Shown piece after piece: positions 760 through 32,925 of a DNA stretch of 64,000 bases. The notes below the pieces were generated by a model. The model saw only the letters and a program-made list of their open reading frames with translations. It did not search any database and had not been told where the DNA came from. The DNA is taken from positions 1 through 64,000 of the forward strand of contig BLSG01000411.1 of NCBI GenBank assembly GCA_012862495.1, given 5' to 3'. Position numbers and translations under genes: made by a program. The first letter of the stretch is position 1. Every line of letters begins with the position of its first letter. Source of the DNA: Thraustochytrium aureum (lineage: Eukaryota).

Positions 760-1680
760 TCACATGTTCACAGCAAGAGGTTCCTCCACGAGCATCTTGT
801 TCTTGATTGGGCTCTGGAATCTTTGCAGCATCGCCCGAAGCTGTCCGCCCGAGCCGATATCGAGAATCGTCCCCGGACGAGGGTCCGCAACGATCGCGCC
901 AAGAATACTTTCCCACTGAACCGTTGCGACGACTTGCTGCGCGAGACTCGCCAGAGTGTCGTCGTCCGGCCTGTACAGCTGCCCGGTCACATTGGAAAAG
1001 ACTTCGTCTACGCAGGTCACGCTTGGCTGCTGCTGCTGCTGCTGCTGCTGCGAAAAGTCGCAAGTGAGGGCGAGCGCTGCAATACGCTCCGCGACATGGC
1101 GCATCGACGCAGTGTGAAAAGCGCCGCCAAGACCCTTTTGCGGCACGGCACGGGAAGCGATTTCTGGTGTCCAACTGATTGCCGCCAAGTCCTCCCGAGG
1201 CCCCGCAACAGTCACACAGAAAGGAAAGAGTCGCGCAGCGATGGCGCAAGGAATGAGGCTTTCATTCTTGACGCCATGCAGAGTCACCATGGCGCCGGGA
1301 TGCTCGTCGCATGCACGCGCCATTGCGTCGGCACGAACTTTGGCCACGCGAAGCGCGTCTTTGAGACTCAACCGCCCAGCTGCAGCAACAGCTGCGACCT
1401 CGCCGACAGACAGGCCTGCAAATACGAGCTTGACGTCACTCTGGAAGAGCTCGGGGTGGACATTCCGCGCTCGGCAGACCGCGTCGAGTGCGCGCACTAC
1501 GATCGCAAGCTGTGCAAACTGGGTTTTCCCAAGCTGCGATGGTGTCAAGCGCGTCACGTCCAGGCCCAAAACTTCTTGCGCGACGCTAGCTAGCGTCGCG
1601 CTGTAGAGTGGCGCGCCAGCGGCTGGGCCGAACTCGATGCCCTGCCCAGGAAGCACAACCCACGTCACCCGCTGCACCAT
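760..1680 (-). CDS. Stand-alone malonyl-CoA:ACP transacylase (FabD/MCAT-like acyltransferase), 306 aa
   Basis: N-terminal VLPGQG; catalytic GLSVGE (Ser91); Arg116 in KVRADAM (+25 from Ser, as in E. coli FabD Ser92/Arg117); GAFHT; SNVTG; QQVVATVQW; ILDIGSG. No obvious N-terminal targeting extension. Contains a poly-Q8 insert. Confidence 0.92.
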   Translation of the reverse strand: MVQRVTWVVLPGQGIEFGPAAGAPLYSATLASVAQEVLGLDVTRLTPSQLGKTQFAQLAIVVRALDAVCRARNVHPELFQSDVKLVFAGLSVGEVAAVAAAGRLSLKDALRVAKVRADAMARACDEHPGAMVTLHGVKNESLIPCAIAARLFPFCVTVAGPREDLAAISWTPEIASRAVPQKGLGGAFHTASMRHVAERIAALALTCDFSQQQQQQQQPSVTCVDEVFSNVTGQLYRPDDDTLASLAQQVVATVQWESILGAIVADPRPGTILDIGSGGQLRAMLQRFQSPIKNKMLVEEPLAVNM

Positions 1681-2764
1681 TTACTCTAGCTCTAGCTAGA
1701 GAGAGTTGTAACCTGGTGGGCAAGTGGNNNNNNNNNNNNNNNNNNNNNNNNNNNNNNNNNNNNNNNNNNNNNNNNNNNNNNNNNNNNNNNNNNNNNNNNN
1801 NNNNNNNNNNNNNNNNNNNNNNNNNNNNNNNNNNNNNNNNNNNNNNNNNNNNNNNNNNNNNNNNNNNNNNNNNNNNNNNNNNNNNNNNNNNNNNNNNNNN
1901 NNNNNNNNNNNNNNNNNNNNNNNNNNNNNNNNNNNNNNNNNNNNNNNNNNNNNNNNNNNNNNNNNNNNNNNNNNNNNNNNNNNNNNNNNNNNNNNNNNNN
2001 NNNNNNNNNNNNNNNNNNNNNNNNNNNNNNNNNNNNNNNNNNNNNNNNNNNNNNNNNNNNNNNNNNNNNNNNNNNNNNNNNNNNNNNNNNNNNNNNNNNN
2101 NNNNNNNNNNNNNNNNNNNNNNNNNNNNNNNNNNNNNNNNNNNNNNNNNNNNNNNNNNNNNNNNNNNNNNNNNNNNNNNNNNNNNNNNNNNNNNNNNNNN
2201 NNNNNNNNNNNNNNNNNNNNNNNNNNNNNNNNNNNNNNNNNNNNNNNNNNNNNNNNNNNNNNNNNNNNNNNNNNNNNNNNNNNNNNNNNNNNNNNNNNNN
2301 NNNNNNNNNNNNNNNNNNNNNNNNNNNNNNNNNNNNNNNNNNNNNNNNNNNNNNNNNNNNNNNNNNNNNNNNNNNNNNNNNNNNNNNNNNNNNNNNNNNN
2401 NNNNNNNNNNNNNNNNNNNNNNNNNNNNNNNNNNNNNNNNNNNNNNNNNNNNNNNNNNNNNNNNNNNNNNNNNNNNNNNNNNNNNNNNNNNNNNNNNNNN
2501 NNNNNNNNNNNNNNNNNNNNNNNNNNNNNNNNNNNAGCCTCTGGCCTCTGGCCTCCTGCAGGGGACTTGCACAAGATGCTCGCGCGGTCAAGCAGACCCC
2601 AGTTGTCTCTTGGCGATCATCAGCACTCCAGCGGAACGACTGATTAGACGAGCAAGAGCAAGACGTTCGAAGGACACAAGCAGGCCCAGCGTGTAGTAGA
2701 CCTGGTCGAAGCGCACCAAGCCCCAGCCGTGAAGACTCGACACATCACAAACCGAACAACCACC

Positions 2765-3650
2765 ATGCTTCTTCTCCTGTTCTCCGGCGTAGGAGCTGTG
2801 TCGGCGAGCACCGCGCGGCTTGTCAACCAAATCGTTTCCGACACAGCTCGCTATGAGCAAGTCAAGGAGCGCCTCGCCTTGAAGCACGGCATCGACTTGG
2901 CCGCGGCCTGGGCGCGTCTCGCGGACTACGACGAAAGCAACTCGCGAGCTCTCAGCGCCCTCGACCAAGTACTGATCCAGTTTGCTGTTCAAATCGCTGG
3001 CGCCGAGATCGCTCTTCGCGCCGTCGGGGCCGACGCCGAGATCGTCGTGCTTGGGCATAGCGTCGGTGAACTTGCAGCTGCTGTTGTGGCCGGCCACCTC
3101 GGCCTTGACGAGGCCGTGGACGCTGCTGTGCATATTGCTGCGGTCGCGAGCAAGCTGAGCGGGGACCTGTGGTACGGCAGTCTTGCTCCCGGCGACGTGG
3201 TCGCTTCCGTCAATCACGGCGACGACGACGGCACCACTTACGGGGCTATTGCCACGAGAGCGAGAGAGCCCCCTCGCGAAGGGCTTCGCCGCATCCACAC
3301 GGGCTTTCCCTGGCACCACCCTGACTACAAGGCATTCGTGGACGGCGATTCAGAGGCGCGCAGTGAGGCTGGTTCGCCGCCGGTGGAGGCGAAATGCAAG
3401 CCTCTCGCGCTCTCTCTCGTGGGCGGACTCGCCAACCAAGAGAAAGGAGCCCTTGGCGCAGCGTACTGGGCAAAGTGGGCCTATACGGGTGTAAACCTTG
3501 CCGGGGCCCTCGTCGCGGTGCGCAACGCATTCCCAATCGACTGCGTAGTCGAGATCTCGGCGCACCCCATGCTCTTGGGGTCGGCGCGCGCTTCGTTCAG
3601 CAGCTCGTGCAAAGACTACGTTGGGCTTTTCAACCGCGAGACGGGCCTGG
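2765..3650 (+). other. PKS domain 1: acyltransferase (loading-type, compact)
   Basis: LLFSGVG (cf. FPGQG); GHSVGE at 3053-3070; Ile (3134) at the conserved Arg position; FPWHH (cf. AFHS); YWAKW...VNL; VVEISAHPML (cf. FLEIGPHPVL). Confidence 0.85.
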
Positions 3651-6600
3651 ACCAAGACGCGCGCCTGGCGCTTGTGAAGCGCGGCGGCGAGGGTCTGCTC
3701 CAGGCGATTCTCCGCACGCTTGGGCCGACGTTGAACCCGGACAAGACTTGGGCGGAGAACGGGCTCAACAGCGCCGACCTCGTCTTGGCGTGCCAAAAGC
3801 TACGCCGCTCTGGGACTGTCCCACTGCTCAAGCCGCACCATCTGTTCCGCATGGTTTCTCCCCGCGCCCTGGCGCTTGTCACGGAGGCAGAGGAGTTGAG
3901 CCCCCAAGCGGAATCCAAGGCCACAGCGCAGCGCGCAGTGGTCGTCCAGGCCATGAGCTGCTTGCTACCGGGCAACTTGCGCTCTGCGGCCCAGTTGGCA
4001 GGGTTTGCAGCCACCCAGGGCGACGCAGTTCGACGCGATACCGGGTTCGACACCGGCAAACATGCTGCGGGGTTTCTGGGCGATATTTGCATCGACCTTG
4101 CCAAGTTTGGCTTGTCTCGCAGCGAGGCGGCCACGCTCGATCCACAGCAAGCTTTGGTATTGGAGTGCGTGGACAAACTCTTGGAGGAGAACGGCATCAT
4201 GCAGCTCCCGGCGAGTACCGGCGTGTACATCGGCGCCTGGAACTCGGAGTTTGCAGGTGACAGGTCTTCCGTGTTTTACCCGACCGGGACAAACCCGAGC
4301 CTCGTAGCTGCCAGAGTGAGCCATATCTACAAGCTCCACGGCCCGTGCAAGGTGATAAACTCTGCATGCGCGTCATCGCTCGAGGCGGTATTGGAGGCGT
4401 TTCGAGACGTGTCCTCCGGCAAAGTAGAGTGCGCTCTCGCCGGCGGCGTCAACCTGCTCTGGGACCCGCACTTTACCGAGTGCATGGCCCAGTCTGGATT
4501 CCTCGGCCCCACGCAACGCTGCCGGTCGTTTGACGCGTGCGCCGACGGCTACGTGCGCTCCGAGGGCTGCGGCCTCGTCCTCCTTGCGCGAAAAGGTGCG
4601 CTGTCTCCGCAGTATCACTGCGAGATTCTGGGCGGAGCATCCAACCAAAATGGCGGTCGCAGCGCCAGCATCACTGCACCAAGCCCGGTCGCCCAGGAAG
4701 AGTGCATCAGGATGGCTCTTGCGGACGCTGGTCTAAGCCCCGCCGACGTCGACTATGTCGAGTGCCACGGGACTGGAACCAAGCTTGGCGACCCCATCGA
4801 GTGGGCAGCCCTGGCGCGCACCATCGGCGCCCACCGGACAGCGGCAAGGCCGTGTCTAGTAGCAAGCATCAAGAGCAACATTGGCCACCTCGAGTCTGCA
4901 GCAGGCGTCGCCGGCCTCATCCACGCCGCCACGGTACTCTCGAGCAAGGTTGTCCCACGTCCGGGCAACCTGTCCAAGCCCAACCCCCTCCTCGACGCCT
5001 GCGAGGGCCTCAAGCTCGCCTTCCCTGCGAACGTGGCTGCGCCGCATCTTGCCGTCGCGGGCGTCTCGTCGTTCGGCTTTGGCGGCAGCAATGTGCACCT
5101 TGTCCTCCGTGCCAGCCCGAACGTGCCACTCCCGCAGCCGCCGATGCTCGCATCCTCGTCGGCGGACAGCGTCTTTGTCTTTGACCGGTCACAGCCGCGC
5201 GTGGCGCCTGTGCTGCTGCCCGTGGCGCCAGAGCAGCAGGGCAAACCTCCAGCCCTGGCAAGTGCAGAAGCGAAAGCAGCTGGAATCACGGTGGAGGCCA
5301 CCTTCTGGGAGGTCGTGCATGCAGTTGCGGGCGAGGTCACACCCGCCGACGCGATCCTCCGCAGCGGACTCGACTCGCTCGGGCTCACAGAACTCTTCTT
5401 GCGCATCGAGCAGCGGCTTGGCGTGGACGCCGCCCACCTCAGCGAGTTCCTCGCAGGCGAGCACTCTTGGGGCGACCTGCGCGAGCGCGTTCTCCGCACA
5501 GCGAGCCCGGTGCAGCAGCAATCGGCTGCCGCGACGCCGCCCAAGCAGCAGCAGCTCCAACAGACGGCAGCCTCGCCGCCCACCGAAGTCGAAGACGAGG
5601 GCGGGTGCGGGCACTTCACCTGGGCACAGCCTCGCTTCAACGAGGCGATCCGGACGACGCACGTGGGGTCGCTGCCGCGCAGCAGCGACAAAGACGAACA
5701 GTACAAGGAGCTGCACAGCCTGTTGCAAAAGCAGCTCAGCATCGGGCTGACGTACATCAACGATGGCGAGGTTGGGCGTATCGACTATGCGACGGCGGTG
5801 CTCACCCGGATGACTGGCTTTGAGGAGCAGGCCGCGTCTGCTGCGCCACAGCCCCAGGACTTGGAAGACATGCCCTGTGTGGCGCGGCGGTTCCTTCGTC
5901 GAGCGGGGCTCATTACACTGAACAAGTCGGTCTTGGCCGCCAACCCGCACTGCGTTGGCGCGGTGAAGTACATTGGGGAAAACTCGCTCAAGCGCGAGCT
6001 GGAAGCAGTTCGTCGCGCCCTTGCCCTGAACAATGCTGGGCTGCCTGGCCAGGCGTTTTGGACAGCGCCGTCCCCCGGCACGCTGGCCATGTTTTTCCAG
6101 AACGACGCGGTGGACGAGTATCCCTCGTACGACGACTATTTGGAAGCTCTCGGCGCCGCATTGCGCTGCGAATACGCGGCGATCGTCAGAAACGGCTTTG
6201 TGCTGCAGGTGGACTGTCCTGACCTGGCCATGTCACGCCACACGCGCTTCAAGCACTTGGGCCTGTCGGCTTGGAAGGCCGTGGTGGCAAAGCACGTCGC
6301 GGTCCTCAACCGCGCCCTCGAGGGCCTCCCGCGAGCGAGCGTGCGCGTGCACGTGTGCTGGGGCAACTACGCGGGAACTCACCACCGCGACGCGGCCGCG
6401 GCCGACGTCCTCTCCGCCGCGTTCACCATCAATGCCGGTGGGATCGGCTTTGAAGCTGCCAACCCGCGTCATGCAGCCGACTGGAGCTCGATGCAAGCTT
6501 GCGACATCCCGCATGACGTGGTGGTCTACCCAGGAGTCGTCGACACGTGCTCCATGTCCGTGGAGAGCCCTGCTGTGGTCTGCGAGCGCATATGCCGCTT

Positions 6601-8578
6601 TGCAAAGCTCGTGGGCCCTTCGCGCGTCGTGGCCAACACCGATTGTGGCTTTTCGACGACGGCCCAGGCACAGGGGCTTCCAGGCGAGGTCGCATGGATG
6701 AAGTTGCGAGCCCTAGTCGCGGGGGCGCGAATGGCCACGCACGCGATGTTCCCGAAGGCGTTTCCGGCCTTTGTCCCGCGCCCAAGCGAGCGACGGTTCT
6801 TGTTCTGTGCTGGGCCGCTCGAGGCGCAGCGCATCTGTGATGGAAAGCTCAGCTCTCGCGCGTTTGACCTTGGCGAGACTCGGGTTGTGTTCACAAGCTT
6901 GCGGGAACCAGGCGATGCGGCAGCGGTGGCGCAGCACGTTCGCCTCTTTGTGGACACGCCTGTGAGCTTTGACACTGACGGCTCCGAGAGCGCAGAGGCC
7001 TTTGCGGGCGAAGTTCGGAGCTTGCTTGCGAACGGGTCGCGCTGCTCGCCAGCGTTCCCCTGTGAGGCGCCCTTGCGAGCGCTAGAGCCAAGCGACATGG
7101 TCGTCGGCTCAGGTTGCGAAACGGCGCTCCGCGAGGCGTACGACGTGGTGGTGGTGGGCGCCGGCGTGGTAGGTCTGCTTGCGGCCAAGCACCTTGCGGC
7201 CAACGGCGTCGACGTCGTGGTGCTCGAGAAGGAGTCGTTTGTGGGTGGCATTTGGACAACCTTTGCAAACCCCACAAGCCAAGTAAACAGCTCCGAAGGG
7301 TCCTACAGGCTCAACGACACGTACCGCAAGCGCCCGAACCGAGACCACAGCACGACGGCCGAGGTCCGCGCAGACATTCTCGAGATCGCGCGCGACCTGC
7401 TCGCCAACGGGCGGCTGTTCACCCAGACCGCAGTCTCTTTTGTGGAGCGATCGGGGCCAGACCAAACAGACTACACGGTGACCCTTGCAAGTGGCAGCAA
7501 CACTGTCCGCTGTAGGGGCGTGATTTTGGCCATCAACGACCGCGTCGGCCAGCCGCGGCCCGTCAAGTGGCCCGGCCAAGGCGCCTTCCAGGGCACCGTG
7601 GTCGACGGCTTTGGCGGAGACGCGCGCGCTCACAAAGTCGACTGGGCCGGCAAGCGCGTGGTGATCGTGGGAATGGGCGCCTTCGCGGTTGAAAACGCGC
7701 GCACTGCGCTAGAAGCGGGCGCACGTAACGTTGTCGTCGTGGCGCGTCGGCACGGGACGGTGTGCCCCAAGTACATCGACTACATAAACTTTGTGCACCG
7801 AGACAGTGTGGGAGCGAATGGGCGCGACATGGACACGTCGCACAACAGCAAGAACATGTTTCTGTGGCGAAAGCTTTACGACGCGAGCCACTGCACAATG
7901 CCAGAGTGCTGGCTCGGCCTGATCAAGCACACCGGCCATACCATCAGCGTGTCGGACGTGTGGTTCGTGGGCCACCATCTAGGTCTCCTTGAGACGCGCC
8001 AGGGCGATCTCGAGCGCCTGGTGGAGAATGGCGTGGTCCTTGCTGGGTCCGGCGAGCTGATCCAGGCGGACGTTGTGGTGAGGTGCACGGGGTTCGAGCG
8101 CAACGCAAGCGCTGTGCCCACCCTCACGCCGTACCGCTCTATGACGCCCGTCAACTACTTGGACACAAACTTGATGTACCTGGCCGACGCGTTCATTGAC
8201 GACGACGCGTTCAACTCGTTCTTTGGGTCGAGCGTCGTCGAGATGGCAAAGTTCTTCGTCATGGTTTTCGAGCACTTTTTCAAGGGCCGAGACCTCGACG
8301 CGCTCGCGCACCCCGCTCTAGCAGCGCTCGTCGACGTCCAGGATCGCAAGTGGACCGACTACATTCGCGGCGCGGAGCATCTCGTCAACGCGGTTCCAGA
8401 CATCCGCCTCAAAGCGGACGCTCTCCTTCGTCGTCGTTACCGAGACTTTGTTGAGGCCCAGTCCGTTGAGGAATACATCGCCGCAAACAAGCGCGAGTGG
8501 GTCGAGCTCCACGACCTGCTCACCCAAGGCGCCGTGGAGCAGAGTTGCATGCTCCCGTATCCATCATGGGCCAAATAA
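2765..8578 (+). CDS. Hybrid type-I PKS: AT-ACP-KS-ACP-MetE-core-like-unknown-flavin monooxygenase, ~1937 aa, apparently intronless
   Basis: One uninterrupted ORF. In-frame TAG upstream at 2645, first ATG at 2765, stop TAA at 8576-8578. Each domain has recognisable motifs (see sub-features). Confidence 0.9.
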   Translation: MLLLLFSGVGAVSASTARLVNQIVSDTARYEQVKERLALKHGIDLAAAWARLADYDESNSRALSALDQVLIQFAVQIAGAEIALRAVGADAEIVVLGHSVGELAAAVVAGHLGLDEAVDAAVHIAAVASKLSGDLWYGSLAPGDVVASVNHGDDDGTTYGAIATRAREPPREGLRRIHTGFPWHHPDYKAFVDGDSEARSEAGSPPVEAKCKPLALSLVGGLANQEKGALGAAYWAKWAYTGVNLAGALVAVRNAFPIDCVVEISAHPMLLGSARASFSSSCKDYVGLFNRETGLDQDARLALVKRGGEGLLQAILRTLGPTLNPDKTWAENGLNSADLVLACQKLRRSGTVPLLKPHHLFRMVSPRALALVTEAEELSPQAESKATAQRAVVVQAMSCLLPGNLRSAAQLAGFAATQGDAVRRDTGFDTGKHAAGFLGDICIDLAKFGLSRSEAATLDPQQALVLECVDKLLEENGIMQLPASTGVYIGAWNSEFAGDRSSVFYPTGTNPSLVAARVSHIYKLHGPCKVINSACASSLEAVLEAFRDVSSGKVECALAGGVNLLWDPHFTECMAQSGFLGPTQRCRSFDACADGYVRSEGCGLVLLARKGALSPQYHCEILGGASNQNGGRSASITAPSPVAQEECIRMALADAGLSPADVDYVECHGTGTKLGDPIEWAALARTIGAHRTAARPCLVASIKSNIGHLESAAGVAGLIHAATVLSSKVVPRPGNLSKPNPLLDACEGLKLAFPANVAAPHLAVAGVSSFGFGGSNVHLVLRASPNVPLPQPPMLASSSADSVFVFDRSQPRVAPVLLPVAPEQQGKPPALASAEAKAAGITVEATFWEVVHAVAGEVTPADAILRSGLDSLGLTELFLRIEQRLGVDAAHLSEFLAGEHSWGDLRERVLRTASPVQQQSAAATPPKQQQLQQTAASPPTEVEDEGGCGHFTWAQPRFNEAIRTTHVGSLPRSSDKDEQYKELHSLLQKQLSIGLTYINDGEVGRIDYATAVLTRMTGFEEQAASAAPQPQDLEDMPCVARRFLRRAGLITLNKSVLAANPHCVGAVKYIGENSLKRELEAVRRALALNNAGLPGQAFWTAPSPGTLAMFFQNDAVDEYPSYDDYLEALGAALRCEYAAIVRNGFVLQVDCPDLAMSRHTRFKHLGLSAWKAVVAKHVAVLNRALEGLPRASVRVHVCWGNYAGTHHRDAAAADVLSAAFTINAGGIGFEAANPRHAADWSSMQACDIPHDVVVYPGVVDTCSMSVESPAVVCERICRFAKLVGPSRVVANTDCGFSTTAQAQGLPGEVAWMKLRALVAGARMATHAMFPKAFPAFVPRPSERRFLFCAGPLEAQRICDGKLSSRAFDLGETRVVFTSLREPGDAAAVAQHVRLFVDTPVSFDTDGSESAEAFAGEVRSLLANGSRCSPAFPCEAPLRALEPSDMVVGSGCETALREAYDVVVVGAGVVGLLAAKHLAANGVDVVVLEKESFVGGIWTTFANPTSQVNSSEGSYRLNDTYRKRPNRDHSTTAEVRADILEIARDLLANGRLFTQTAVSFVERSGPDQTDYTVTLASGSNTVRCRGVILAINDRVGQPRPVKWPGQGAFQGTVVDGFGGDARAHKVDWAGKRVVIVGMGAFAVENARTALEAGARNVVVVARRHGTVCPKYIDYINFVHRDSVGANGRDMDTSHNSKNMFLWRKLYDASHCTMPECWLGLIKHTGHTISVSDVWFVGHHLGLLETRQGDLERLVENGVVLAGSGELIQADVVVRCTGFERNASAVPTLTPYRSMTPVNYLDTNLMYLADAFIDDDAFNSFFGSSVVEMAKFFVMVFEHFFKGRDLDALAHPALAALVDVQDRKWTDYIRGAEHLVNAVPDIRLKADALLRRRYRDFVEAQSVEEYIAANKREWVELHDLLTQGAVEQSCMLPYPSWAK
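3695..3880 (+). other. PKS domain 2: ACP1
   Basis: LNPDKTWAENGLNSADLV..L....LKPHHLFRMVSPRALA. GLNS phosphopantetheine-site variant at 3761-3772 and a typical ACP C-terminal pattern. Confidence 0.75.
3935..5120 (+). other. PKS domain 3: ketosynthase with intact Cys-His-His triad
   Basis: LDPQQALVLE; NSACASSL (Cys at 4367); FDACADGYVRSEG; ECHGTGTKLGDPIE (His at 4766); KSNIGHLESAAG; GVSSFGFGGSNVH. Confidence 0.97.
5295..5500 (+). other. PKS domain 4: ACP2
   Basis: ILRSGLDSLGLTELFLRIEQRLGV with canonical GLDS (Ser at 5375-5377), followed by a Q/P/A-rich linker. Confidence 0.9.
5645..6740 (+). other. PKS domain 5: cobalamin-independent methionine synthase C-terminal (core) / epoxyalkane:CoM transferase-like Zn domain
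   Basis: TTHVGSLPR; QLSIGLTYINDGE; LQVDCPDLA; HVCWGNYAGTHHRD (His/Cys Zn ligands at 6350-6358); FEAANPRH; YPGVVD; RVVANTDCGF (Cys at 6644); AWMKLRALVAGA. Confidence 0.88.
7136..8575 (+). other. PKS domain 7: class B flavin monooxygenase (FMO/BVMO-like)
   Basis: YDVVVVGAGVVG...VVVLEK...VGGIW (FAD Rossmann fold); GKRVVIVGMGAFAVE...ARR (NADPH Rossmann fold); ADVVVRCTGF; degenerate fingerprint FQGTVVDGFGG. Confidence 0.85.
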
Positions 8579-9249
8579 GAAAACAAGCGCTGTAAGGGAN
8601 NNNNNNNNNNNNNNNNNNNNNNNNNNNNNNNNNNNNNNNNNNNNNNNNNNNNNNNNNNNNNNNNNNNNNNNNNNNNNNNNNNNNNNNNNNNNNNNNNNNN
8701 NNNNNNNNNNNNNNNNNNNNNNNNNNNNNNNNNNNNNNNNNNNNNNNNNNNNNNNNNNNNNNNNNNNNNNNNNNNNNNNNNNNNNNNNNNNNNNNNNNNN
8801 NNNNNNNNNNNNNNNNNNNNNNNNNNNNNNNNNNNNNNNNNNNNNNNNNNNNNNNNNNNNNNNNNNNNNNNNNNNNNNNNNNNNNNNNNNNNNNNNNNNN
8901 NNNNNNNNNNNNNNNNNNNNNNNNNNNNNNNNNNNNNNNNNNNNNNNNNNNNNNNNNNNNNNNNNNNNNNNNNNNNNNNNNNNNNNNNNNNNNNNNNNNN
9001 NNNNNNNNNNNNNNNNNNNNNNNNNNNNNNNNNNNNNNNNNNNNNNNNNNNNNNNNNNNNNNNNNNNNNNNNNNNNNNNNNNNNNNNNNNNNNNNNNNNN
9101 NNNNNNNNNNNNNNNNNNNNNNNNNNNNNNNNNNNNNNNNNNNNNNNNNNNNNNNNNNNNNNNNNNNNNNNNNNNNNNNNNNNNNNNNNNNNNNNNNNNN
9201 NNNNNNNNNNNNNNNNNNNNNNNNNNNNNNNNNNNNNNNNNNNNNNNNN

Positions 9250-11941
9250 AATTGCATTCGTCGTCCGCTGTCGGCTGAGAGCACGTGTACAGTGTATCCT
9301 CGTGACCCTCCTCTACGTCCTCGTCATCATCAATAGACTCTCCCGTTTGATTGCATTCTCGGGCGGACGCGTCCCTCCCCTCGACTTCACTATTCCGAGT
9401 CGTGAGCGCCGCCGTCGTCTTGCCAGAACAGTCACTCCAGTCAGCAGAGTAGTTGCCTTTCGAGAGGCGGGGAACGAGGTCGAGCTTGTCAAGCCCGTTC
9501 CCGTCCGTGTACGAGGCTGGGCGAATGTTGTGCATCGACTTGGAAGCAGAGAGCGAAGTCGGCCTGCCCACTGTACTTGAACCGATCCTCATTCGCGAGT
9601 CCAAGCCCAAACTTTCGACAGCTGACGCATCGAAGAACGAGCCGTGGTTCTTGATCGTATCGACACGATGAAGGATCTGGGACTGCAGCTCGCGGCGTTT
9701 GGCAAGCACCGCGCTGGCTGGTGCCCCTGCGGAGGCGCCGTCAACGCCTTGACGACTAAAGCAGCGCAAGATCTTTTGGGCCACCATGGCGTGCATGTCC
9801 GCGTCCAATTTTGAAGCAAAGACCTGCCTGTCGAACAGCAAGCAGCTTACGTCTCCTTTTGCGCGGCATGTGGCGGTGCGCTCTGTGCCGGCATACATGC
9901 CCATCTCGCCAAAGTAGCCCCCCTCGTGTACTGTGTCGAGCAGGGTCCACTTGGTTCCAACGTCATCCGGCACAAAGTCATTCGACTCGGTTGTGGGGCC
10001 GAAGATCTCCACCGATCCTTTAGTGACAATATAGCAGTCCGCACCCATCTCGCCGCACTTGATGATGAGGTCGCCGTCCTGGTACTTTTGGCGCCGGTAG
10101 CATCCGCTCATGACGATCTGGTCCATCATCACCTTGGCGAGGTGCATGTCGTCCTTGAGGTCATCGTCTGATGAGAGCGCGTTGAAAAACTTTTGCAGCT
10201 TTCGACGCACGATGGGAAACGGGGGCCGCTTTTCCGGCAAAGGGTCCCAGCACTGCTCGATGAGACGCTTGATATCGGCCGGCACGTTTGGCGGGATATC
10301 GAGGCGAAAGTCCGCGTGAGCAACCTTGTGTGGAAACTCCAACGCATCGAGCGGCGTCATTTCCTCAAACGGGTTTGCCTCGGTCGCGATCTCAAGCAAC
10401 AGTATCCCAAAGCTGTAGACATCAGCCTTGGTCGTGTAGCGCTCTGCGCGAATCATCTCTGGTGCGCGCCAGAACGGTGTGCCTACTGGCGTCGTTGCCG
10501 CGCCTTGCAATATGCGGCTCGTCCCAAAATCGGACACCTTGGAAGTGAAAGTGGAGGACACGAGCACGTTTTCCGTCTTGAGGTCACGATGAACGATATT
10601 GAGTCCATGCAAGAAGGCCATCCCCTTTGCAATGTCGATTGCCAATTTGCACTTGGGGTCTTCCCAGCTAAGCTGCAAGGCGCGGTCTTGGAGTACCGAG
10701 CGGAGCGAACCGCGCGACATGAGCTCCAGGACCATGCCGACCATCTCCGACTCCTCGCTCCACGTGACGCCCATAAGTTGGACGATGTTGGGGTGGCGTA
10801 GGCCCTTCAGAAGCTTCACCTCGGCAATAAATTGTTCGCTGCTCGACTTGTTGAGGAGCGCCGCTGGGAGGCGCTTAAAAGCCACTGGCGCGTCCATATA
10901 GTAGGCTTCAAACACCTCCCCCATGGCGCCGCGGCCCAGGAATCCGCGCATGTCGAGGTCGTCGGGGGCAATGCAAAGGCGCGACATGGTCTGGTTTTCG
11001 CGTAGACGCTTGAAGAATTCCTCCACTTGCGTTCGCTCTGGATGAAACTCATCTGCCGTTTTGGACCAATTGGAAAACCCGCTCTTGCGTCGTCGAGCCT
11101 TCACCGCCTCGTCGAGTAGCTTCTTCCGCATTTCCGCATTGTGGCTTGACATGAACCACGTTCGACGTCCCAGCTCATCCCTTGCAACGCAAAATGAGAG
11201 CATCGCGAGCATGCACAGAATGGTAACGAGTACACTGCTCATGGCACTGAAATGAAACCGGCCGTCTTTGCTCATGACGAGTAGCAAAGCCCAACCGGCC
11301 AGCCCCACACACGTCGCTAGTCCAGCGCCTATTAAACGCGAGGTGTGGACTGGACTTAGCATGCACAAGGAGGCAAAGTGGATGACTGCAAGCGTCGCGA
11401 GTTCCCCAAGCGTCTCTGCGCCTGTGAAAGTCTCGTTACCCCATGTGAGGAGTGGGCTCCCCAACGCGACGCTCATTGTGAACGCACCGGTGACCAGAGA
11501 GCTGTCCCTCATGTAAAATCGCTCCACGTACTTGACAACGAGCCACCATGTGAGTGCCCCGCCGCAACAGAGCCCGTAAATGACGCCCAGCGCCCCCGCC
11601 TCGCTACCGTGTCTACTTAGCAGGACTATCCACCCAACTGCGAACGCACCCGTGACACGGCCCTCCATTCGGTCGACAAAGTCCAATTCCTCCTGCTGCC
11701 GTCGCTCACACTGTGCGTGGACGTAGGCTTGCTCGACCTTTGGGTCGTTAAACCTAAACATGCTCATTCGCAGAGTGTCCCCCAGTATCGACTCGAGGTG
11801 CGTGAGCTGATCAAGGTCTGTGGACAAGCCCGTCTGCAGCTGGCCGCCAAAGCTCACGACCTCGCTTTCGAAGTCATTGAACCCGCCGCCGCCGCCGCCA
11901 CCGCTGCGGCTGCTTGGGTGAACGCGGCTCGACGGATTCAT
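9250..11941 (-). CDS. Multi-pass membrane TKL-family protein kinase with C-terminal cNMP-binding domain (3' end lies in gap)
   Basis: About 6 hydrophobic segments (~11650-11185). Kinase motifs GRGAMG, VAFK, HRDLKTENVL, DFG, GTPFWRAPE, DVYSFG. cNMP domain IIKCGEMG...YFGEMGMYAGTERTATCRA. First ATG at 11941. Confidence 0.88.
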
Positions 11942-12866
11942 GTAGCTGGCGCTGTCGCTGAAGGGGAGCCCGTTTTGTTCGACCCAGCCGCGGCGCGCGT
12001 CTTGCCCGCGCCGGCGGCGGAGCTCGAAAGCCTGCCTGTTTGGGACAAGGCTGACACGGCCTTCGCCCACTCGCTAGTAGGAGAGACGCCTGGCCTCTCT
12101 AGACTCCGCTCTGCGCGGTCGCCCTCGTTGGTTTTGCGCAGTCGTGTTGAGAGCGGGCCTGCCTGCCTGCCCGCCTGCCCGCCCACCTTCCTTGTCTGTG
12201 TGGGCGCCAAAGCGTTCTCGGGCTATTGCGAGCCACACGGGCCGCTCCAAACGCGCTCTTTGGGTCCCTGTGCTGGCCCTCGCGCCTGCGCGTTGTTGTT
12301 CGCTCTGCTGGCTGGCTTCCTGCAGGCTGATTGCTTGGATCATCACCAGCGCCTGTTGCCTGTTGCATGTGCATGTCCGTTGGAGCAGGGATTTGCCTTG
12401 CAGCGCAATGTTCGACGCGCCGTTCCTTGCTCTTCGCAAGTATTCGGGAGCGGCTCGTTAAAATTGAGTGGGTTCGCCGTACACAGTAGCTTTATCTACG
12501 TGGTGCGGAATCATTCGAGACTGTCTCAAAAGAGTTGATGCTGCCCACGCTCCCTCTGGACTGGCTTGGTTTTAACGGATAGTAGGTAGACCCACCAAGT
12601 TGCATTGCATTCGTTGTCTGCTTGTCCGTCGCGGTCCGACGTACAGTAGCAGCGAGGCGCCCGCTTTGTGCTATCGGGTACTGATGTAAGCCACGAAGCC
12701 TTCATACCGTGTGCCTTGACCCAGGTCGTCGCGACGACGGCGGCCAACGGGACGAGTCGCTCGCTGGGCAGCCGCGAAGGATCAGCAGAGGCTGGCAGCT
12801 GCGCAAACCAGCCAAAGGCGCTTGTCGACCAGCACCGCCGACTCCCAACAAACGAGCACCGGAAAG

Positions 12867-15272: not shown

Positions 15273-16187
15273 CTATAGGCGTGCGGGCCCGTCCGGACGA
15301 AAGGTTGTCGGGAAAAAAGCCTCCTCTGGCTCCTTGGCACCTGGAATGACATACCTCCCATAGATGTAGTCCGGTTGACGATCCGTGCGCCATTCAACGT
15401 CACGACGAACGAGGTGGACACCCAGCGCACGACGGTGCCGCGAGGTCGAGCTGCTTGCCGCAGAACCGTGCCACACATCCTGATGGTGGATTATGGCACT
15501 GCCGGCCTCGACAGCGACCTTGACCGTCTGGGGCACCTCCGCGAGGCCAGCGCGCGACGCGGCCAAGAGCAAGGGCACCCTGTAATCCTCAGTAGCATGG
15601 AACGAGGACGTCACCGCAGTTGTTGCCTCTGCGGCGCTTGCCCAGAGGTGAGACCCCGGGCAATACTCGACCACGCCAGTCTCTTCGTCAGCATCGTCGA
15701 GCGCAATCCACACGGTAACAGAGTTGTTCTCAAGCGGCGTGAATTGCGCCGAGATGTACGCAGAATCTTGGTGAAACCCGACAGAGGATGCAAGAGGGGG
15801 CTTCCAGAGAACGTCGTCTTGTGCAAGCCTTGCCCCGGCGACCCATCTTGAGAGCCCTGCTGCAAGCTTGCCGATCGGCTCGGCCAGCACGACCTTGGCG
15901 ATCGTGCGGTCGCTCTTCCATCCGTTGACGATCTCCCTAAAGGCATCCGGGCGAGAAATGCCTTTCCGCCAGTGCCACTCATCCGGGTAGACGCCTGTGT
16001 CAAACTGGCCGGCGAATAGGGGCTCAAAGCGGTCACGCGCGGCACGTACGGTGGTTTGGTCCACGAGGTTGTCGACCTTGACAAACCCGTCTCTTGCAAA
16101 CTGGTCCCGCGCTTGCTCCAGCGCCGCTGGGTTCCTTGCGAGCTCTGTGGCATCAAACGACTGCGGCGCTGCGCCGTTCCGCTCCAT
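15273..16187 (-). CDS. Phytanoyl-CoA dioxygenase (PhyH) family Fe(II)/2OG dioxygenase
   Basis: QFARDGFV; WKPP...FHQD; VTVWIALDDADEETG..YCPGSH; HHQDVWHGS..S...RR. Confidence 0.92.
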   Translation of the reverse strand: MERNGAAPQSFDATELARNPAALEQARDQFARDGFVKVDNLVDQTTVRAARDRFEPLFAGQFDTGVYPDEWHWRKGISRPDAFREIVNGWKSDRTIAKVVLAEPIGKLAAGLSRWVAGARLAQDDVLWKPPLASSVGFHQDSAYISAQFTPLENNSVTVWIALDDADEETGVVEYCPGSHLWASAAEATTAVTSSFHATEDYRVPLLLAASRAGLAEVPQTVKVAVEAGSAIIHHQDVWHGSAASSSTSRHRRALGVHLVRRDVEWRTDRQPDYIYGRYVIPGAKEPEEAFFPTTFRPDGPARL

Positions 16188-18533: not shown

Positions 18534-20570
18534 CGTTTACTGCTTCGGCAACTGTGGACCGCTCGTGCGCACGAGGCACCGTAGTGCTGGTGTGGAGACT
18601 CGACTTTGCTATCGTTTGTTCCTGGCCAGCCAGGACGCCCTCCAAGAGCTGGGCGCAGATGAATCCGGGGCGGCAGAAACGCCACCCTGGTCCGCGCTGC
18701 GCTAGCCGAGACCAGCGGCCGCGGGCTGAGCGCTCCCCACAGCGTCTCCTGGGCGTGCGAGGCCTTCCGTCGACCGGGTCGAGCGGGAGCCAAAGCGAGC
18801 GCGGGCAAGCTTTTCCGGCCTGGAGCGGCGGCGCTGCAGGGTCTTGGCGGTCGGCTTGGGGCTGCTGGAGGAGGCCGCGGCGTGCGATCCCGGGCTCCTC
18901 GCCAGGTGCTGTGCTGTCTGCGTGCCTCGCTGGCTGTTGCGTTGCGTTGCAGGGGTCTGTCTGCTTGCTTGTCCTTGCTTGTGCTTGCATACTCTACGGG
19001 AGTGCGCTGCTGTTTCCACGAGGGAGGAGGCCACTGAAAAAGGCGAAAAAATGGGAACTTTGAAAGACGTGAGCATGGAGAGGGGGAAGCTCCAGTCTGA
19101 GAGGAGAGGGCGTGCGAGAGAGGGAGCAGGGAGCTGGGAAAGGGACGGCTCCGAGTCGGAGCAGGAGTAAGCGCGTCCCTCCGACGCCATCTCCCCAAAA
19201 GCAACGATACAAGAGAAAAACAAAAACAAAATGAAAAATGACGAAAAGTGCTCCTCTGCAAACGCGCTGTGAGGATGTGAGGAGCCGGGGGGCGGGATTC
19301 AGAATTCAGGATTCAGAATTCAGAATTCAGATCAGAATTCAGCGAACGCCCTCTGCACCGGCACAGGCGTCGGAACGGATACAAAAGGAGGGAGGGCGCC
19401 TCGCTCGCTCTCTCCTCCACGCGGGAGGCCAATCCTTCCGCGCCTCCCTCGCGCAGCTCGAAGAACATTCTTCAACGCAAAGGATTTCCAGAGGCGGACC
19501 TTCGTTTTCTCGGCGCCAGCACGACGATGTTTTTCGACCTCCTTACAAAACGGCGTTCGACGCCTGCGAGCGAGTAGGTAGAAGCGTAGAAGCGTTTTGT
19601 GCGGCGTCAACTTGTTTCTGAACTCAGATGAGCTGACCGCCCTTTCAAGACCAAGAGACTCCTCGTTTCAGGGTGAGAGAGCACGCGTCCAGCTCGTCGC
19701 CACCAAACCAACCCACCCAAGATGGCTCTCCGAGATGCTCCACTCACTCCCCGTGGTACCTCCGAGAACTTTTCATCGTCTTGCTGAGCATGAATCCTCC
19801 CCAGTGTGGCACAAGTCAGAGAGAGAGTATCCATTGCCCAGTGTCAAGGACTGCGAGGCAAGATGGCGCCTCTTGTTCACGCACACGCTGTGCAGGGGAC
19901 AGCGCGCTCTGCGTCCACTCCTCTGCGTCCGCTCCTCGGCTGGTCTCAGTCTGCTCGGCACCGCGTTCGGTGTTGTCGTGACGCATGTGGGCGCTTCGTG
20001 ACTCGTCTTTGCTCGTCAAGAGGGCAGCATTCTCGTCACCTGCGTGAGGCCTGGTCTTGGATCTGGGTGTGCATCTGTACTAGTAGAATCCACCTGACTC
20101 GGAGGCTAGCCGGCCACTGGCAGAGGTTGCATTCGCGGAAGTGAGGAGAAAGTGCAAGACCCCTCAAGGCCCCCTTGTGCGAGCGGCGCCCCTCCTGCTC
20201 TCTCCCAGAGGCGCCGCTCCGACTCCCTCACACCAGAAGAGGCTATTCTCACAAGAGGCTCCGACTCCGAGTCGTCAGTGACTCGTCACACAAGAACCTG
20301 CCTGCTCACTCTATCCTTGATTGTTTCCTCCTTGCCGAGTGGTTTGGTGCAGCGATCGATCACACGGGCCAGTCCATTTTCAACCTCCAGTCACATCTCT
20401 GTTGACAGGCAAAGTCGGTCTGTCGCAGTCTTGGGCGCGGTCCGAATCATCACTCGCATTCACTGTCATGACTCTCGTCTCTCTCTCCTTTGCGCGCAGA
20501 CCGGAGCAGACCCGCGACCCAGACAGCTCTGTTGCACAGGCCGAGCGACGAACAAGCGCCCCCAACCACG

Positions 20571-22412
20571 ATGAGCGACGAAGGCAACGCTCCTGCACAC
20601 GGCGAGGTCTCGCTGGCCTCAACGCAGCCGCACGGGCGCAGCGTCTGCATGGTTGCCGCTCTTGTGGTCAACGTCGCGTTGCTGATCTACTCGCACGTCG
20701 GGATCAACGCGATCGTCTACTCGTCACTGGAGATCGGGAGCGGACTTGACGAGAACGGCAGCCTCAACAAGACTGGCCAATGCACGCCCAGCGACGAGTC
20801 CGTTTGGTTTGGCAACGAACAGCTCAACACCACCGATCGATGCCTCGTATGGGATTCCATCGATTTCCTGAACAGTCGCCCCTGCCCGTACGCCAGCAAG
20901 ACTGCCGCGCGAGACGCGTACAACGATTTCATGTTCGCGTACGGCCTGTGCGTCGGCTTCGAATTTGGGTTTTGTGAAGTCAACCCTTCCGAGGACCTGG
21001 CCGAGTTTCAGCAGATCGCGAACGCGGAGTGGGGCTTTTCGGGAACTTGCGCCGAGTGCATGTTTGCGCAATTCGAATGCACCGTGTCCAGCTGCGTCGC
21101 TGAATGTGCTTCAAACCTCGCTTCCCTCGGCTGCCCGGGTGCTGACTCTGCGTGTGCGGATTGTGTCGAGGATAAGTGCTCGCCTGCCTTCAAGTCTTGC
21201 AGCGGCCTGCCGACGACCCCGGTTCAGGACTACCAGTATGACAATTGCCCCGACCTCGATGGTTCTGAACCGAAAATCCAGAGCGAAGAGTGCCTCATCG
21301 TGAGCGAGCTCGATATCGAACTCTACAAAGTCTTCGAGGTGCGATTCGGCAACGCCGTGACAAAGGCTTGGGAGGGGGGCGCGCGTTTCCTGGCTCTGCT
21401 GGTGGCGATCGCGTCCGGCGTGTGGCCCTACATGAAGAACATCATGATGGCCATTACCTGGTTCGTGCCGCTCTCTCCTAGCCGCCGCGATTATGTTCTC
21501 CTCTGGCTCGCTCGCCTCGGCCGCTGGTCGCTCGTAGACGTCTTTGCGGTAATTCTCATCATCGTCGGCCTCCGCATAGACAAGGAAATCAGCTCTGGGA
21601 CCTACCTTCTCGTCCGCTCCGAGTCAAGTGCTGCGATCTACTGCTTTGCAGTTGCCGCTGTTATGGCGCTCGTTCAGGGCGAGGTGATCCGCCGCATCAA
21701 TCGTAACGGGATCAAGCGCGCCCCAGCATACACCGTCAGCCTGCCAGAGCCGCTGTCCAGCGGCGCGCGCAATGCCCTCCGCGGCTCCACTTTGGCGCTC
21801 TCTCTGGTTTCGATCGCCCTCGCCGCTGTTGGCCTCACCATGGTGAACATCGAGTTCGAAATGCGCGGCATCGCCGTCTCTTTCAAGGGGCCAAACCTGT
21901 ACAAGTATACCGGAATCGAGGTGGGCACCAGCCTCGTCGACGCCTGCCAGCTTCAGGGCCTTGGCGAGTACTTTTTGCTCATCGTCTACTTTGCAACCGT
22001 GGTGCTGTGCCCTGCTCTTGCGCTGCTTGGCTTCATTGCGCTTGCGGTTATGCCGGCGCGTCTCATGGCGTCCAATCGCGGCCTTGTCCGCATCATCAAT
22101 GTGCTGGCCAACTTTCAGTGCCTCGACGTCTTTCTGCTCTCCATGGTCGTCCTTATCGCTCAGTTTGAGCCCCTTATCGATGGCTCGATTGCCGCCGAAG
22201 CCGCGGCAATTTGCGGCGAGGACGTCGAGGGCGACTGCCTCAAGTTTGTTGGGACCCTTGAGCTCGGCGCAGTGTTTGTTGGCGCCAGCGTTGTGACGTT
22301 CTGGGTAGCCCAGATTTTATCGTTGTGGGTGCAGAGGCACTGGCGATTCCACGCAATTGGCATTGCCACGATCGAGGATGCCTCAAAGGAGGTCACAACG
22401 GAGTGGAAATAG
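20571..22412 (+). CDS. Membrane protein with Cys-rich lumenal/extracellular domain and two PqiA-like domains
   Basis: N-terminal TM, many CxxC motifs, LGRWSLVDVF and FQCLDVFLL (PqiA-type W-S-x-x-D-V-F motif), multiple TM helices. Confidence 0.7.
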   Translation: MSDEGNAPAHGEVSLASTQPHGRSVCMVAALVVNVALLIYSHVGINAIVYSSLEIGSGLDENGSLNKTGQCTPSDESVWFGNEQLNTTDRCLVWDSIDFLNSRPCPYASKTAARDAYNDFMFAYGLCVGFEFGFCEVNPSEDLAEFQQIANAEWGFSGTCAECMFAQFECTVSSCVAECASNLASLGCPGADSACADCVEDKCSPAFKSCSGLPTTPVQDYQYDNCPDLDGSEPKIQSEECLIVSELDIELYKVFEVRFGNAVTKAWEGGARFLALLVAIASGVWPYMKNIMMAITWFVPLSPSRRDYVLLWLARLGRWSLVDVFAVILIIVGLRIDKEISSGTYLLVRSESSAAIYCFAVAAVMALVQGEVIRRINRNGIKRAPAYTVSLPEPLSSGARNALRGSTLALSLVSIALAAVGLTMVNIEFEMRGIAVSFKGPNLYKYTGIEVGTSLVDACQLQGLGEYFLLIVYFATVVLCPALALLGFIALAVMPARLMASNRGLVRIINVLANFQCLDVFLLSMVVLIAQFEPLIDGSIAAEAAAICGEDVEGDCLKFVGTLELGAVFVGASVVTFWVAQILSLWVQRHWRFHAIGIATIEDASKEVTTEWK

Positions 22413-32730: not shown

Positions 32731-32925
32731 GCCAACAGCAGAGAGCGGCCACCGAGCGAGCAGGGCTAGGCCAACAGCAGAGAGCGGCCACCGAGCGAGC
32801 AGGGCTAGGCCAACAGCAGAGCGCGGCCACCGAGCGAGCAGGGCTAGGCCAACAGCAGAGCGCGGCCACCGAGCGAGCAGGGCTAGGCCAACAGCAGAGA
32901 GCGGCCACCGAGCGAGCAGGGCTAG
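32731..32925. repeat. 39-bp minisatellite x5
   Basis: gccaacagcagag(a/c)gcggccaccgagcgagcagggctag repeated head-to-tail with no spacers; overlaps the MOSC stop codon. Confidence 0.95.

Follow-up and report, generated by a model that had tools for sequence, protein, structure and literature searches.

Much marine plankton is limited by vitamin B12, and predictions of B12 auxotrophy rely on detection of the canonical metE gene. An unusual relative of this gene is widespread in labyrinthulids, dinoflagellates, haptophytes and pelagophytes, and conflicting proposals have been published for the polyketide synthase (PKS)-like and flavin domains of its product. Rao 2024 (PMC10861871) named this protein of marine protists the 'MetE-fusion', listed Hondaea and labyrinthulids among the organisms that carry it, and reported that it is 2–4-fold higher in Phaeocystis without B12. 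These authors left the methyl donor open, proposing glycine betaine or S-methylmethionine, and speculated that the flavoprotein traffics zinc. Ma 2022 (PMC9734096) described a Schizochytrium 'MetE-like complex' with the order acyltransferase (AT), ketosynthase (KS), MetE and CzcO, which increased 4.2-fold in the absence of cobalamin and decreased by 36% when methionine was added, and credited it, from correlation, with release of eicosapentaenoic acid (EPA). The same architecture was found in dinoflagellates by Lin 2022 (PMC11197592), where the truncated metE was judged non-functional, and Mausz 2025 (PMC12478193) merely cites the MetE-fusion.

In this study we considered a gene of this kind in Thraustochytrium aureum. 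It lies within positions 1–64,000 of contig BLSG01000411.1 (assembly GCA_012862495.1), a 64,000-nt stretch that we call the window and that carries eukaryotic-type genes in a profile search (kinases, zinc fingers, a mitochondrial carrier and GARP subunits). By its sequence, the gene adds one more member to the published MetE-fusion (or MetE-like complex) family. Its architecture, which an original prediction made from the window alone had taken to be undescribed, is therefore not new and appears in the papers of Ma, Lin and Rao. The same prediction assigned the gene to the synthesis of an unknown secondary metabolite; S-adenosylmethionine (SAM) riboswitches on a bacterial split form of the system, together with the published repression of eukaryotic homologues by B12 and methionine, point instead to methionine itself as the product. 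We consider it very probable that the fusion serves methionine synthesis. An evenly balanced proposition is that the protein needs neither B12 nor folate to make methionine, and that a carrier-bound methyl donor would be built from acetate and oxygen by its PKS-like and flavin domains. The features of the locus, in window positions, are as follows; ACP denotes an acyl carrier protein, FMO a flavin monooxygenase and BVMO a Baeyer-Villiger monooxygenase.

760..1680, minus strand, free-standing FabD-like AT, 306 aa (PF00698, TIGR00128)
1681..2764, no strand, divergent intergenic region, 1084 nt, of which 1728–2535 (808 nt) is masked
2765..8578, plus strand, MetE-fusion / MetE-like complex, a single intron-free open reading frame (ORF) of 1937 aa
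2771..3643, plus strand, loading AT with Ser99, Ile and not Arg at Ser+25, and a WHH motif
3689..3874, plus strand, ACP1, the loading carrier, with Ser336, recognized by hhalign to ACP profiles
3935..5116, plus strand, KS with intact Cys535/His668/His708
5300..5494, plus strand, ACP2, the extender carrier, with Ser871 (PF00550 over cut-off)
5639..6739, plus strand, core MetE barrel without the folate-binding half (residues 959–1325), with an HxC...E...C zinc site
6740..7120, plus strand, alpha/beta linker domain of about 125 aa, equivalent to the N-terminal part of the separate bacterial flavoprotein
7133..8572, plus strand, class B flavoprotein (FMO/BVMO-like) with FAD and NADPH Rossmann motifs and conserved Asn1508 and Arg-Arg 1661–1662

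The frame of the fusion ORF is stop-free from a GTG at 2729 to the stop at 8578, and translation likely starts at the ATG at 2765, the point where the homologues begin. Pfam and NCBIfam place the domains in the order AT, KS-N, KS-C, PP-binding (the second ACP), Meth_synt_2 and FAD/NAD(P) class B flavoprotein, and list no ketoreductase (KR), dehydratase (DH), enoylreductase (ER), methyltransferase (MT) or thioesterase (TE) in the ORF. ACP1 has no Pfam match, yet it matches ACP profiles by hhalign (probability 90–91%, E 9e-7), and its serine is conserved in 78/78 aligned homologues. The predicted order AT-ACP-KS-ACP-MetE-FMO in one ORF without KR, DH, ER, MT or TE is thus confirmed, as is every domain named in it, but the linker domain between MetE and the flavoprotein had been overlooked. 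For this domain we found no convincing look-alike: Atlas matches were weak (recognition 1658) and fold searches barely covered it. The extender AT, reductive and release domains expected of a product-releasing modular type I PKS are all missing from the ORF. A chimeric join, against which the original prediction had advised a check, is ruled out by independent public contigs that bridge the ORF, one covering 4606–8599 gap-free and a second covering 2721–5245, which overlap with no joints listed.

A search with residues 940–1937, in which 7989 candidates were scored, returned 52 proteins. They come from metagenomes and from Hondaea, Amoebophrya, Symbiodiniaceae, Polarella, Emiliania and Chrysophaeum, and 31 of them have the full order AT-ACP-KS-ACP(n)-MetE-linker-flavoprotein. 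Over its full length the fusion is 58–59% identical to Hondaea GBG23799.1 (58%, the closest named protein) and two close relatives, and it falls in the same clade as the named MetE-fusion members in both the MetE tree and the flavoprotein tree. In one protein of 2225 aa (P0007) the MetE-linker-flavoprotein unit is tandemly duplicated. A metagenome scan gave at least one eukaryotic fusion and, in bacteria, at least 79 loci with a stand-alone core MetE; among the loci listed, many of them on short contigs, none has an AT, KS or flavoprotein in its flanks.

The zinc and homocysteine sites of core methionine synthases are intact in the core MetE domain. Its Zn ligands are His1196, Cys1198, Glu1230 and Cys1294, and its homocysteine-binding residues are Ser969, Glu1002 and Asp1150, the reference residues being E. 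coli S433, E484 and D599 as defined in Price 2021 (PMC7857596). Both sets are conserved in all ungapped rows of a 104-row alignment. In a bacterial homologue the Glu and Asp align on Glu73 and Asp188 of structure 3RPD (with a 3-residue counting offset), whereas the Ser was assigned by motif. 3RPD, which is MesD with selenomethionine, is also the structure closest to the core MetE model (Z 34.3, rmsd 2.4, 310 residues aligned). Profile support for the two C-terminal catalytic domains, on which the original prediction depended, is divided: the CzcO/Pyr_redox_2 flavoprotein scores above its cut-off (PF07992, 41 bits), but Meth_synt_2 reaches 19.7 bits, slightly under its cut-off of 21. All four NCBIfam methionine synthase models score 36–56 bits on the fusion, far below their cut-offs of 313–576. 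The canonical N-terminal folate-binding barrel is absent, and ACP2 and a linker occupy the space ahead of the core barrel.

Further indications of function come from bacteria. A genome scan with the flavoprotein alignment yielded 51 loci from 150 pattern matches; 47 of these (L081–L127) had long matches of 45–52% identity and were kept, and L128–L131 were dropped as weak or fragmentary. Nearly all of the 47 are from Desulfobacterota or deltaproteobacterial metagenome-assembled genomes (MAGs), with one Spirochaetota and one Myxococcota representative. A core metE gene is present in 46/47 loci, and a gene encoding AT-ACP-KS-ACP(-ACP) adjoins the flavoprotein gene in 42/47, giving a three-gene cluster of PKS, core MetE and flavoprotein genes in 42 loci; the five loci without a PKS gene are cut by contig ends. 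This cluster was not found in the literature searched. Its only other widely conserved neighbour is a phosphopantetheinyl transferase (PPTase) gene, in 12/47 loci. A small profile set detected no KR, DH, ER or TE in fusions or bacterial clusters, and the conserved neighbours of the 47 loci include no tailoring, transporter, release or polyunsaturated fatty acid (PUFA) synthase gene. MesX (DUF1852) is likewise not among these neighbours, no genome-wide search for it having been made. In half of the PKS-bearing clusters (L082, L084, L085 and 18 others) metE lies in inverted orientation, with the PKS gene on one side and the flavoprotein gene on the other, and in L087, L089 and L094 genes resembling those of tripartite ATP-independent periplasmic (TRAP) transporters and a phosphoenolpyruvate-mutase-family gene are inserted in the cluster. 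The Desulfobacterota sequences lie beside the haptophyte/dinoflagellate clade in the MetE tree and beside the labyrinthulid clade in the flavoprotein tree (FastTree, arbitrary roots); as the two trees disagree, we claim no transfer donor.

The SAM-I riboswitch model (Rfam RF00162) gave 16 matches over the gathering score in 28 loci (3/7, 7/7 and 6/14), and a SAM-I model built from 10 loci and run on the 51 loci and the window gave 21 matches, 5 of them additional. All 21 lie just upstream of the PKS gene. Another 12 loci (L084:5169-5262, L098:5175-5268, L100:5170-5263 and nine others in alignment A6, from Desulfobacterota-type MAGs) carry a compact leader that keeps the consensus core letters of SAM-II and is followed by an intrinsic terminator, so that 33/42 PKS-bearing loci have a SAM-type leader, 71–408 nt before the AT domain of the PKS. 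Against RF00521 and RF01726 the compact leader scores 17.1 versus 36 bits and 14.6 versus 44 bits, short of gathering in both cases. Because it falls below the Rfam cut-off and, in the 8/12 genomes that match, was found only at its own cluster, we call it SAM-II-like only; it is possibly an uncatalogued SAM-II variant lying below the cut-offs of the SAM_alpha and SAM-II models. In 13/33 leader-bearing loci (12 SAM-II-like, 1 SAM-I) metE is on the opposite strand, and there the leader would regulate the PKS gene but not metE.

SAM-I elements are rare in the host genomes, with 1–3 copies in 12/25 when 99 candidates per genome were scored. Full-length MetH scored over cut-off in 0/25 cluster-bearing genomes; partial modules are common, and split forms remain possible. 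Several of these genomes have a second core-MetE-like or MetE gene. A SahR-type operator, sought by its palindrome, was not found at the bacterial clusters.

If methionine is the product, the PKS-like domains can be read as the source of its methyl group. In FabD and loading ATs, an Arg 25 residues after the catalytic Ser binds the carboxylate of the substrate, and enzymes without it take a monocarboxylic starter. This Arg is present at Ser+25 in 0/74 aligned cis ATs (33 eukaryotic and 41 bacterial), whose specificity motif is WH(H/Y/A). The loading character proposed for the cis AT in the original prediction is thereby upheld, and since Ser+25 is never Arg the enzyme is predicted, from this residue alone, to take a monocarboxylic acyl-CoA, namely acetyl-CoA. 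The divergent AT gene, which does lie head-to-head with the fusion as had been predicted, encodes the complementary type: it matches PF00698 (E 1e-9) and TIGR00128 (E 9e-23, the latter below cut-off), and its aligned Ser91, Arg116 (Ser+25) and AFH motif are those of malonyl enzymes. These residues suggest that it likely primes an ACP with malonyl in trans, and it is a plausible dedicated partner of the MetE-fusion, with which it may share a putative promoter. An in-frame stop immediately 5' of its ATG leaves no presequence in that exon. A protein database search returned no orthologue at E<=1e-30; it has 36 weak matches of at most 32% identity, the top five unnamed. In the fusions P0034 and P0040 a second, malonyl-type AT (Arg at Ser+25) is fused N-terminal to the loading AT; the truncated start of P0033 belongs with them.

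The flavoprotein has no redox CxxC, and a predicted model of the linker-flavoprotein segment (pLDDT 86.8) shows a class B fold with two Rossmann motifs. To examine its context, we counted upstream domains in 19 other PKSs that bear this flavoprotein family and have an identifiable preceding domain. The flavoprotein directly follows a KS in 15/19 (gap 22–133 aa), a KR in 3/19 and a DH in 1/19, and in 2/3 of the KRs that intervene between KS and flavoprotein the catalytic Tyr is replaced by His. Because the family mostly follows a KS directly and two of the three intervening KRs lack this Tyr, it likely acts on beta-keto thioesters. Two flavoprotein-bearing PKSs have an acetate-CoA-ligase-like loading domain. 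A precedent for such a reaction is OocK, which makes malonyl esters from beta-ketoacyl thioesters (Meoded 2018, PMC6174933).

We therefore considered a cycle in which the cis AT would transfer the acetyl group of acetyl-CoA to ACP1 and the KS, while a FabD-type AT, likely the divergent neighbour, would prime ACP2 with malonyl. Condensation by the KS would then give acetoacetyl-ACP2 and CO2, and the flavoprotein, using NADPH and O2, would carry out an OocK-type Baeyer-Villiger insertion to form the methyl ester of malonyl-ACP2. Finally, the Zn-bound homocysteine thiolate on the core MetE domain would take the methyl group by SN2, yielding methionine and regenerated malonyl-ACP2. The net reaction would be acetyl-CoA + homocysteine + O2 + NADPH -> methionine + CO2 + CoA + NADP+ + H2O, with malonyl acting catalytically and never being released. 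The domain order, catalytic residues, family membership and bacterial clusters with SAM-type leaders are observed, and every step of the cycle is our inference. Every domain of the fusion except the linker would have a task in this scheme, and the missing domains would be explained as well. A KR would be absent because the ketone is needed for the oxidation, a release domain because nothing leaves the carrier, and a cis extender AT because malonyl is needed only for priming, for which a housekeeping FabD would suffice in bacteria. From the earlier biosynthetic reading it would retain malonate supplied in trans, a single extension and the pairing of thiol alkylation with a flavin reaction; the unknown metabolite would not be retained. 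This cycle was not found in the literature searched, which did not extend to most subscription journals or the Rao SI Appendix. That it represents a PKS module repurposed for primary metabolism, in which a malonyl-ACP cycle makes a methyl ester that Zn-homocysteine demethylates, and hence a third chemistry of methionine synthesis, we regard as having somewhat less than an even chance. A reading in which the chain becomes gonyol or dimethylsulphoniopropionate (DMSP) was dropped, there being no KR.

Several observations weigh against the acetate route or the role itself. No leader is present at 9/42 loci, and the SAM-II-like leaders score 13–17 bits against an Rfam cut-off of 36 and are restricted to this cluster in 8/12 genomes that match. 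The bacterial hosts are nominal anaerobes, whereas the proposed route needs O2; a member of the heme-copper oxidase family is encoded in 23/25 cluster-bearing genomes, and this family also includes nitric oxide reductases. The type I BVMO fingerprint is FxGxxxHxxxW, and its His is missing in 105/105 aligned flavoprotein rows, which lowers an assignment as a type I BVMO and leaves OocK-like action unaffected. Foldseek places BVMOs at the top in a near tie with other class B enzymes (TM ~0.5), and VIA-align gives similar scores to DiatB (Z 24.2), to the disulfide reductase Bdr (22.8) and to an FMO (22.5); with scores so nearly tied, the fold does not fix the reaction type. Methyl is the poorest migrating group in Baeyer-Villiger insertion, and no enzyme of the MetE type is known to us to remove a methyl group from a carboxylic ester. 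Of 11 compounds tested with OocK, only 2 yielded product, both of medium or long chain (Meoded 2018, PMC6174933). The eight dinoflagellates tested by Lin 2022 (PMC11197592) were reported as B12-auxotrophic, their truncated metE did not show the typical B12 response, and the extra domains occurred in only 10/40 metE-bearing species.

The explanation nearest to this one keeps the protein as a methionine synthase and has the donor made otherwise: by oxygen insertion on the opposite side to give acetoxyacetyl-ACP, whose CH2 would undergo S-alkylation with decarboxylation afterwards, from a methylated onium acyl group (a betainyl or DMSP-type group that the AT would load and MetE demethylate), or with the flavoprotein serving as a reductase. 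The regulatory and MetE evidence fits it equally well, the Bdr and thioredoxin-reductase folds score near the monooxygenases, the AT substrate is read from a missing Arg, and glycine betaine and S-methylmethionine have been suggested as donors (Rao 2024, PMC10861871). Yet with an onium starter neither the KS nor the flavoprotein would be needed, the release and decarboxylation domains that the CH2 route requires are absent from fusions and clusters, a redox CxxC is missing, and the position of the flavoprotein right after the KS in PKS modules points to the chain as its substrate. We hold such alternatives to be possible but doubtful. A role in another SAM-regulated sulphur step, such as salvage or repair of methionine or homocysteine, is much less probable. 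SAM riboswitches are not confined to synthesis genes but also control salvage and uptake genes, and several host genomes have the second MetE-type gene noted above. The B12 auxotrophy of dinoflagellates (Lin 2022, PMC11197592) would also fit. However, Phaeocystis antarctica grows without B12 and the MetE-fusion is its reported MetE (Rao 2024, PMC10861871), this MetE domain is reportedly the only one in Schizochytrium (Ma 2022, PMC9734096), and full-length MetH was not detected in the 25 cluster-bearing genomes, split forms aside. We judge this role very unlikely.

The compact assembly line of the original prediction, which would make a small and possibly sulphur-containing metabolite released by thiol alkylation or oxygenation, is favoured by the PKS-like anatomy, by core MetE folds that do thiol alkylation outside methionine synthesis, by the commonness of the flavoprotein family in larger protist PKSs and by the annotation of the closest bacterial proteins as epoxyalkane:CoM transferases (Rao 2024, PMC10861871). 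We nevertheless find it unlikely in view of the 21 SAM-I and 12 SAM-II-like leaders on the bacterial clusters, the repression of homologues by B12 and methionine (Rao 2024, PMC10861871; Ma 2022, PMC9734096), and 47 bacterial loci in which no tailoring, transporter or release gene besides that for PPTase is conserved. Least probable of all, and in our view extremely unlikely, is the suggestion of Ma 2022 (PMC9734096) that the AT and KS release EPA from the PUFA synthase while MetE works separately. In Schizochytrium deprived of cobalamin, EPA increased from 1.26% to 7.63% alongside the transcript, but in the accessible text this support is a correlation without knockout or enzyme assay. Moreover, AT-ACP-KS, MetE and flavoprotein occur together in 42 bacterial loci, mostly under SAM-type leaders and with no PUFA synthase among the conserved neighbours, and a core MetE that lacks the folate domain depends on a partner to make its donor.

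Some further observations were made in passing. A large family of unnamed multi-module PKSs contains an in-line KS-flavoprotein-ACP module without KR (P0072, P0088, P0098, P0102, P0104, P0108, P0125, P0134, P0147 and P0178); these protist modules are candidates for oxygen insertion into, or carbon deletion from, polyketides. A distant flavoprotein relative (28%) adjoins a non-ribosomal peptide synthetase, without MetE, in a Coxiellaceae MAG (L130:2319-11479). The characterized PKS alpha-hydroxylases MupA and OocM are of the luciferase fold (Winter 2023, PMC10952193), and the FLX alpha-hydroxylase of PKZILLA was dropped as an analogue of the flavoprotein because the characterized enzymes cited for it are luciferase-fold class C proteins, a judgement made without comparison of the PKZILLA sequence. 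In Phaeocystis, a KS contig listed as B12-responsive correlates with the MetE-fusion contig (Spearman 0.77) in raw counts uncorrected for library size, and this value was not used. Convergent with the fusion gene in the window is a partly masked gene at 8564–12070 (minus strand) for a membrane protein with a kinase and a cyclic-nucleotide-binding domain. The window also encodes a PhyH-family dioxygenase (15273–16187, minus strand), a PqiA-domain protein (20490–22412, plus strand) and a MOSC-domain protein (32922–34169, minus strand), which show no sign of membership in the MetE-fusion system.

The interest of this locus lies in an open question made directly testable and not in its architecture. 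The acetate cycle predicts O2-dependent transfer of CD3 from acetate into methionine, and the intron-free ORF and the three small bacterial genes are practical material for such a test. If the proposal is correct, acetate carbon would have a folate-independent entry into the methyl pool (SAM, DMSP and sterol methyls), a methyl ester would serve as an enzymatic methyl donor, there would be a lead for the unsolved MesD/MesX chemistry, and widespread marine protists would share this chemistry with SAM-controlled clusters of Desulfobacterota.

In architecture, the T. aureum fusion does not differ from the MetE-fusion of Rao and Ma, having the same order of AT, PKS/KS, PP-binding, C-terminal MetE and CzcO-type flavoprotein. 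The accessible portions of those papers do not propose that the PKS and flavin domains make the methyl donor, describe prokaryotic homologues as MetE-only, and do not mention a linked malonyl AT, a bacterial three-gene cluster or riboswitches at such clusters. Canonical MetE of the E. coli type shares the C-terminal Zn barrel and homocysteine site, but it has the N-terminal folate-binding barrel where the fusion instead joins PKS and flavin domains. The OocK/PedG oxygen-insertion modules of trans-AT PKSs resemble, by module context, the cycle proposed for the fusion: a flavin monooxygenase oxidizes a beta-keto thioester made by a KS, with no KR in the module, to give a malonyl ester. The chains that OocK handles are longer and belong to a natural-product line of several modules, whereas the fusion would use the ester as a methyl donor and recycle the malonyl group. 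MesD/MesX performs oxygen-dependent methionine synthesis with a methyl group predicted to come from central metabolism (Price 2021, PMC7857596). Its MesD component shares with the fusion, at about 23% identity, the core MetE barrel, the Zn and homocysteine residues and, as proposed here for the fusion, independence of folate and B12 and a need for oxygen, but MesD requires MesX (DUF1852), whereas core MetE in the fusion is partnered with a PKS-like module and a class B flavoprotein.

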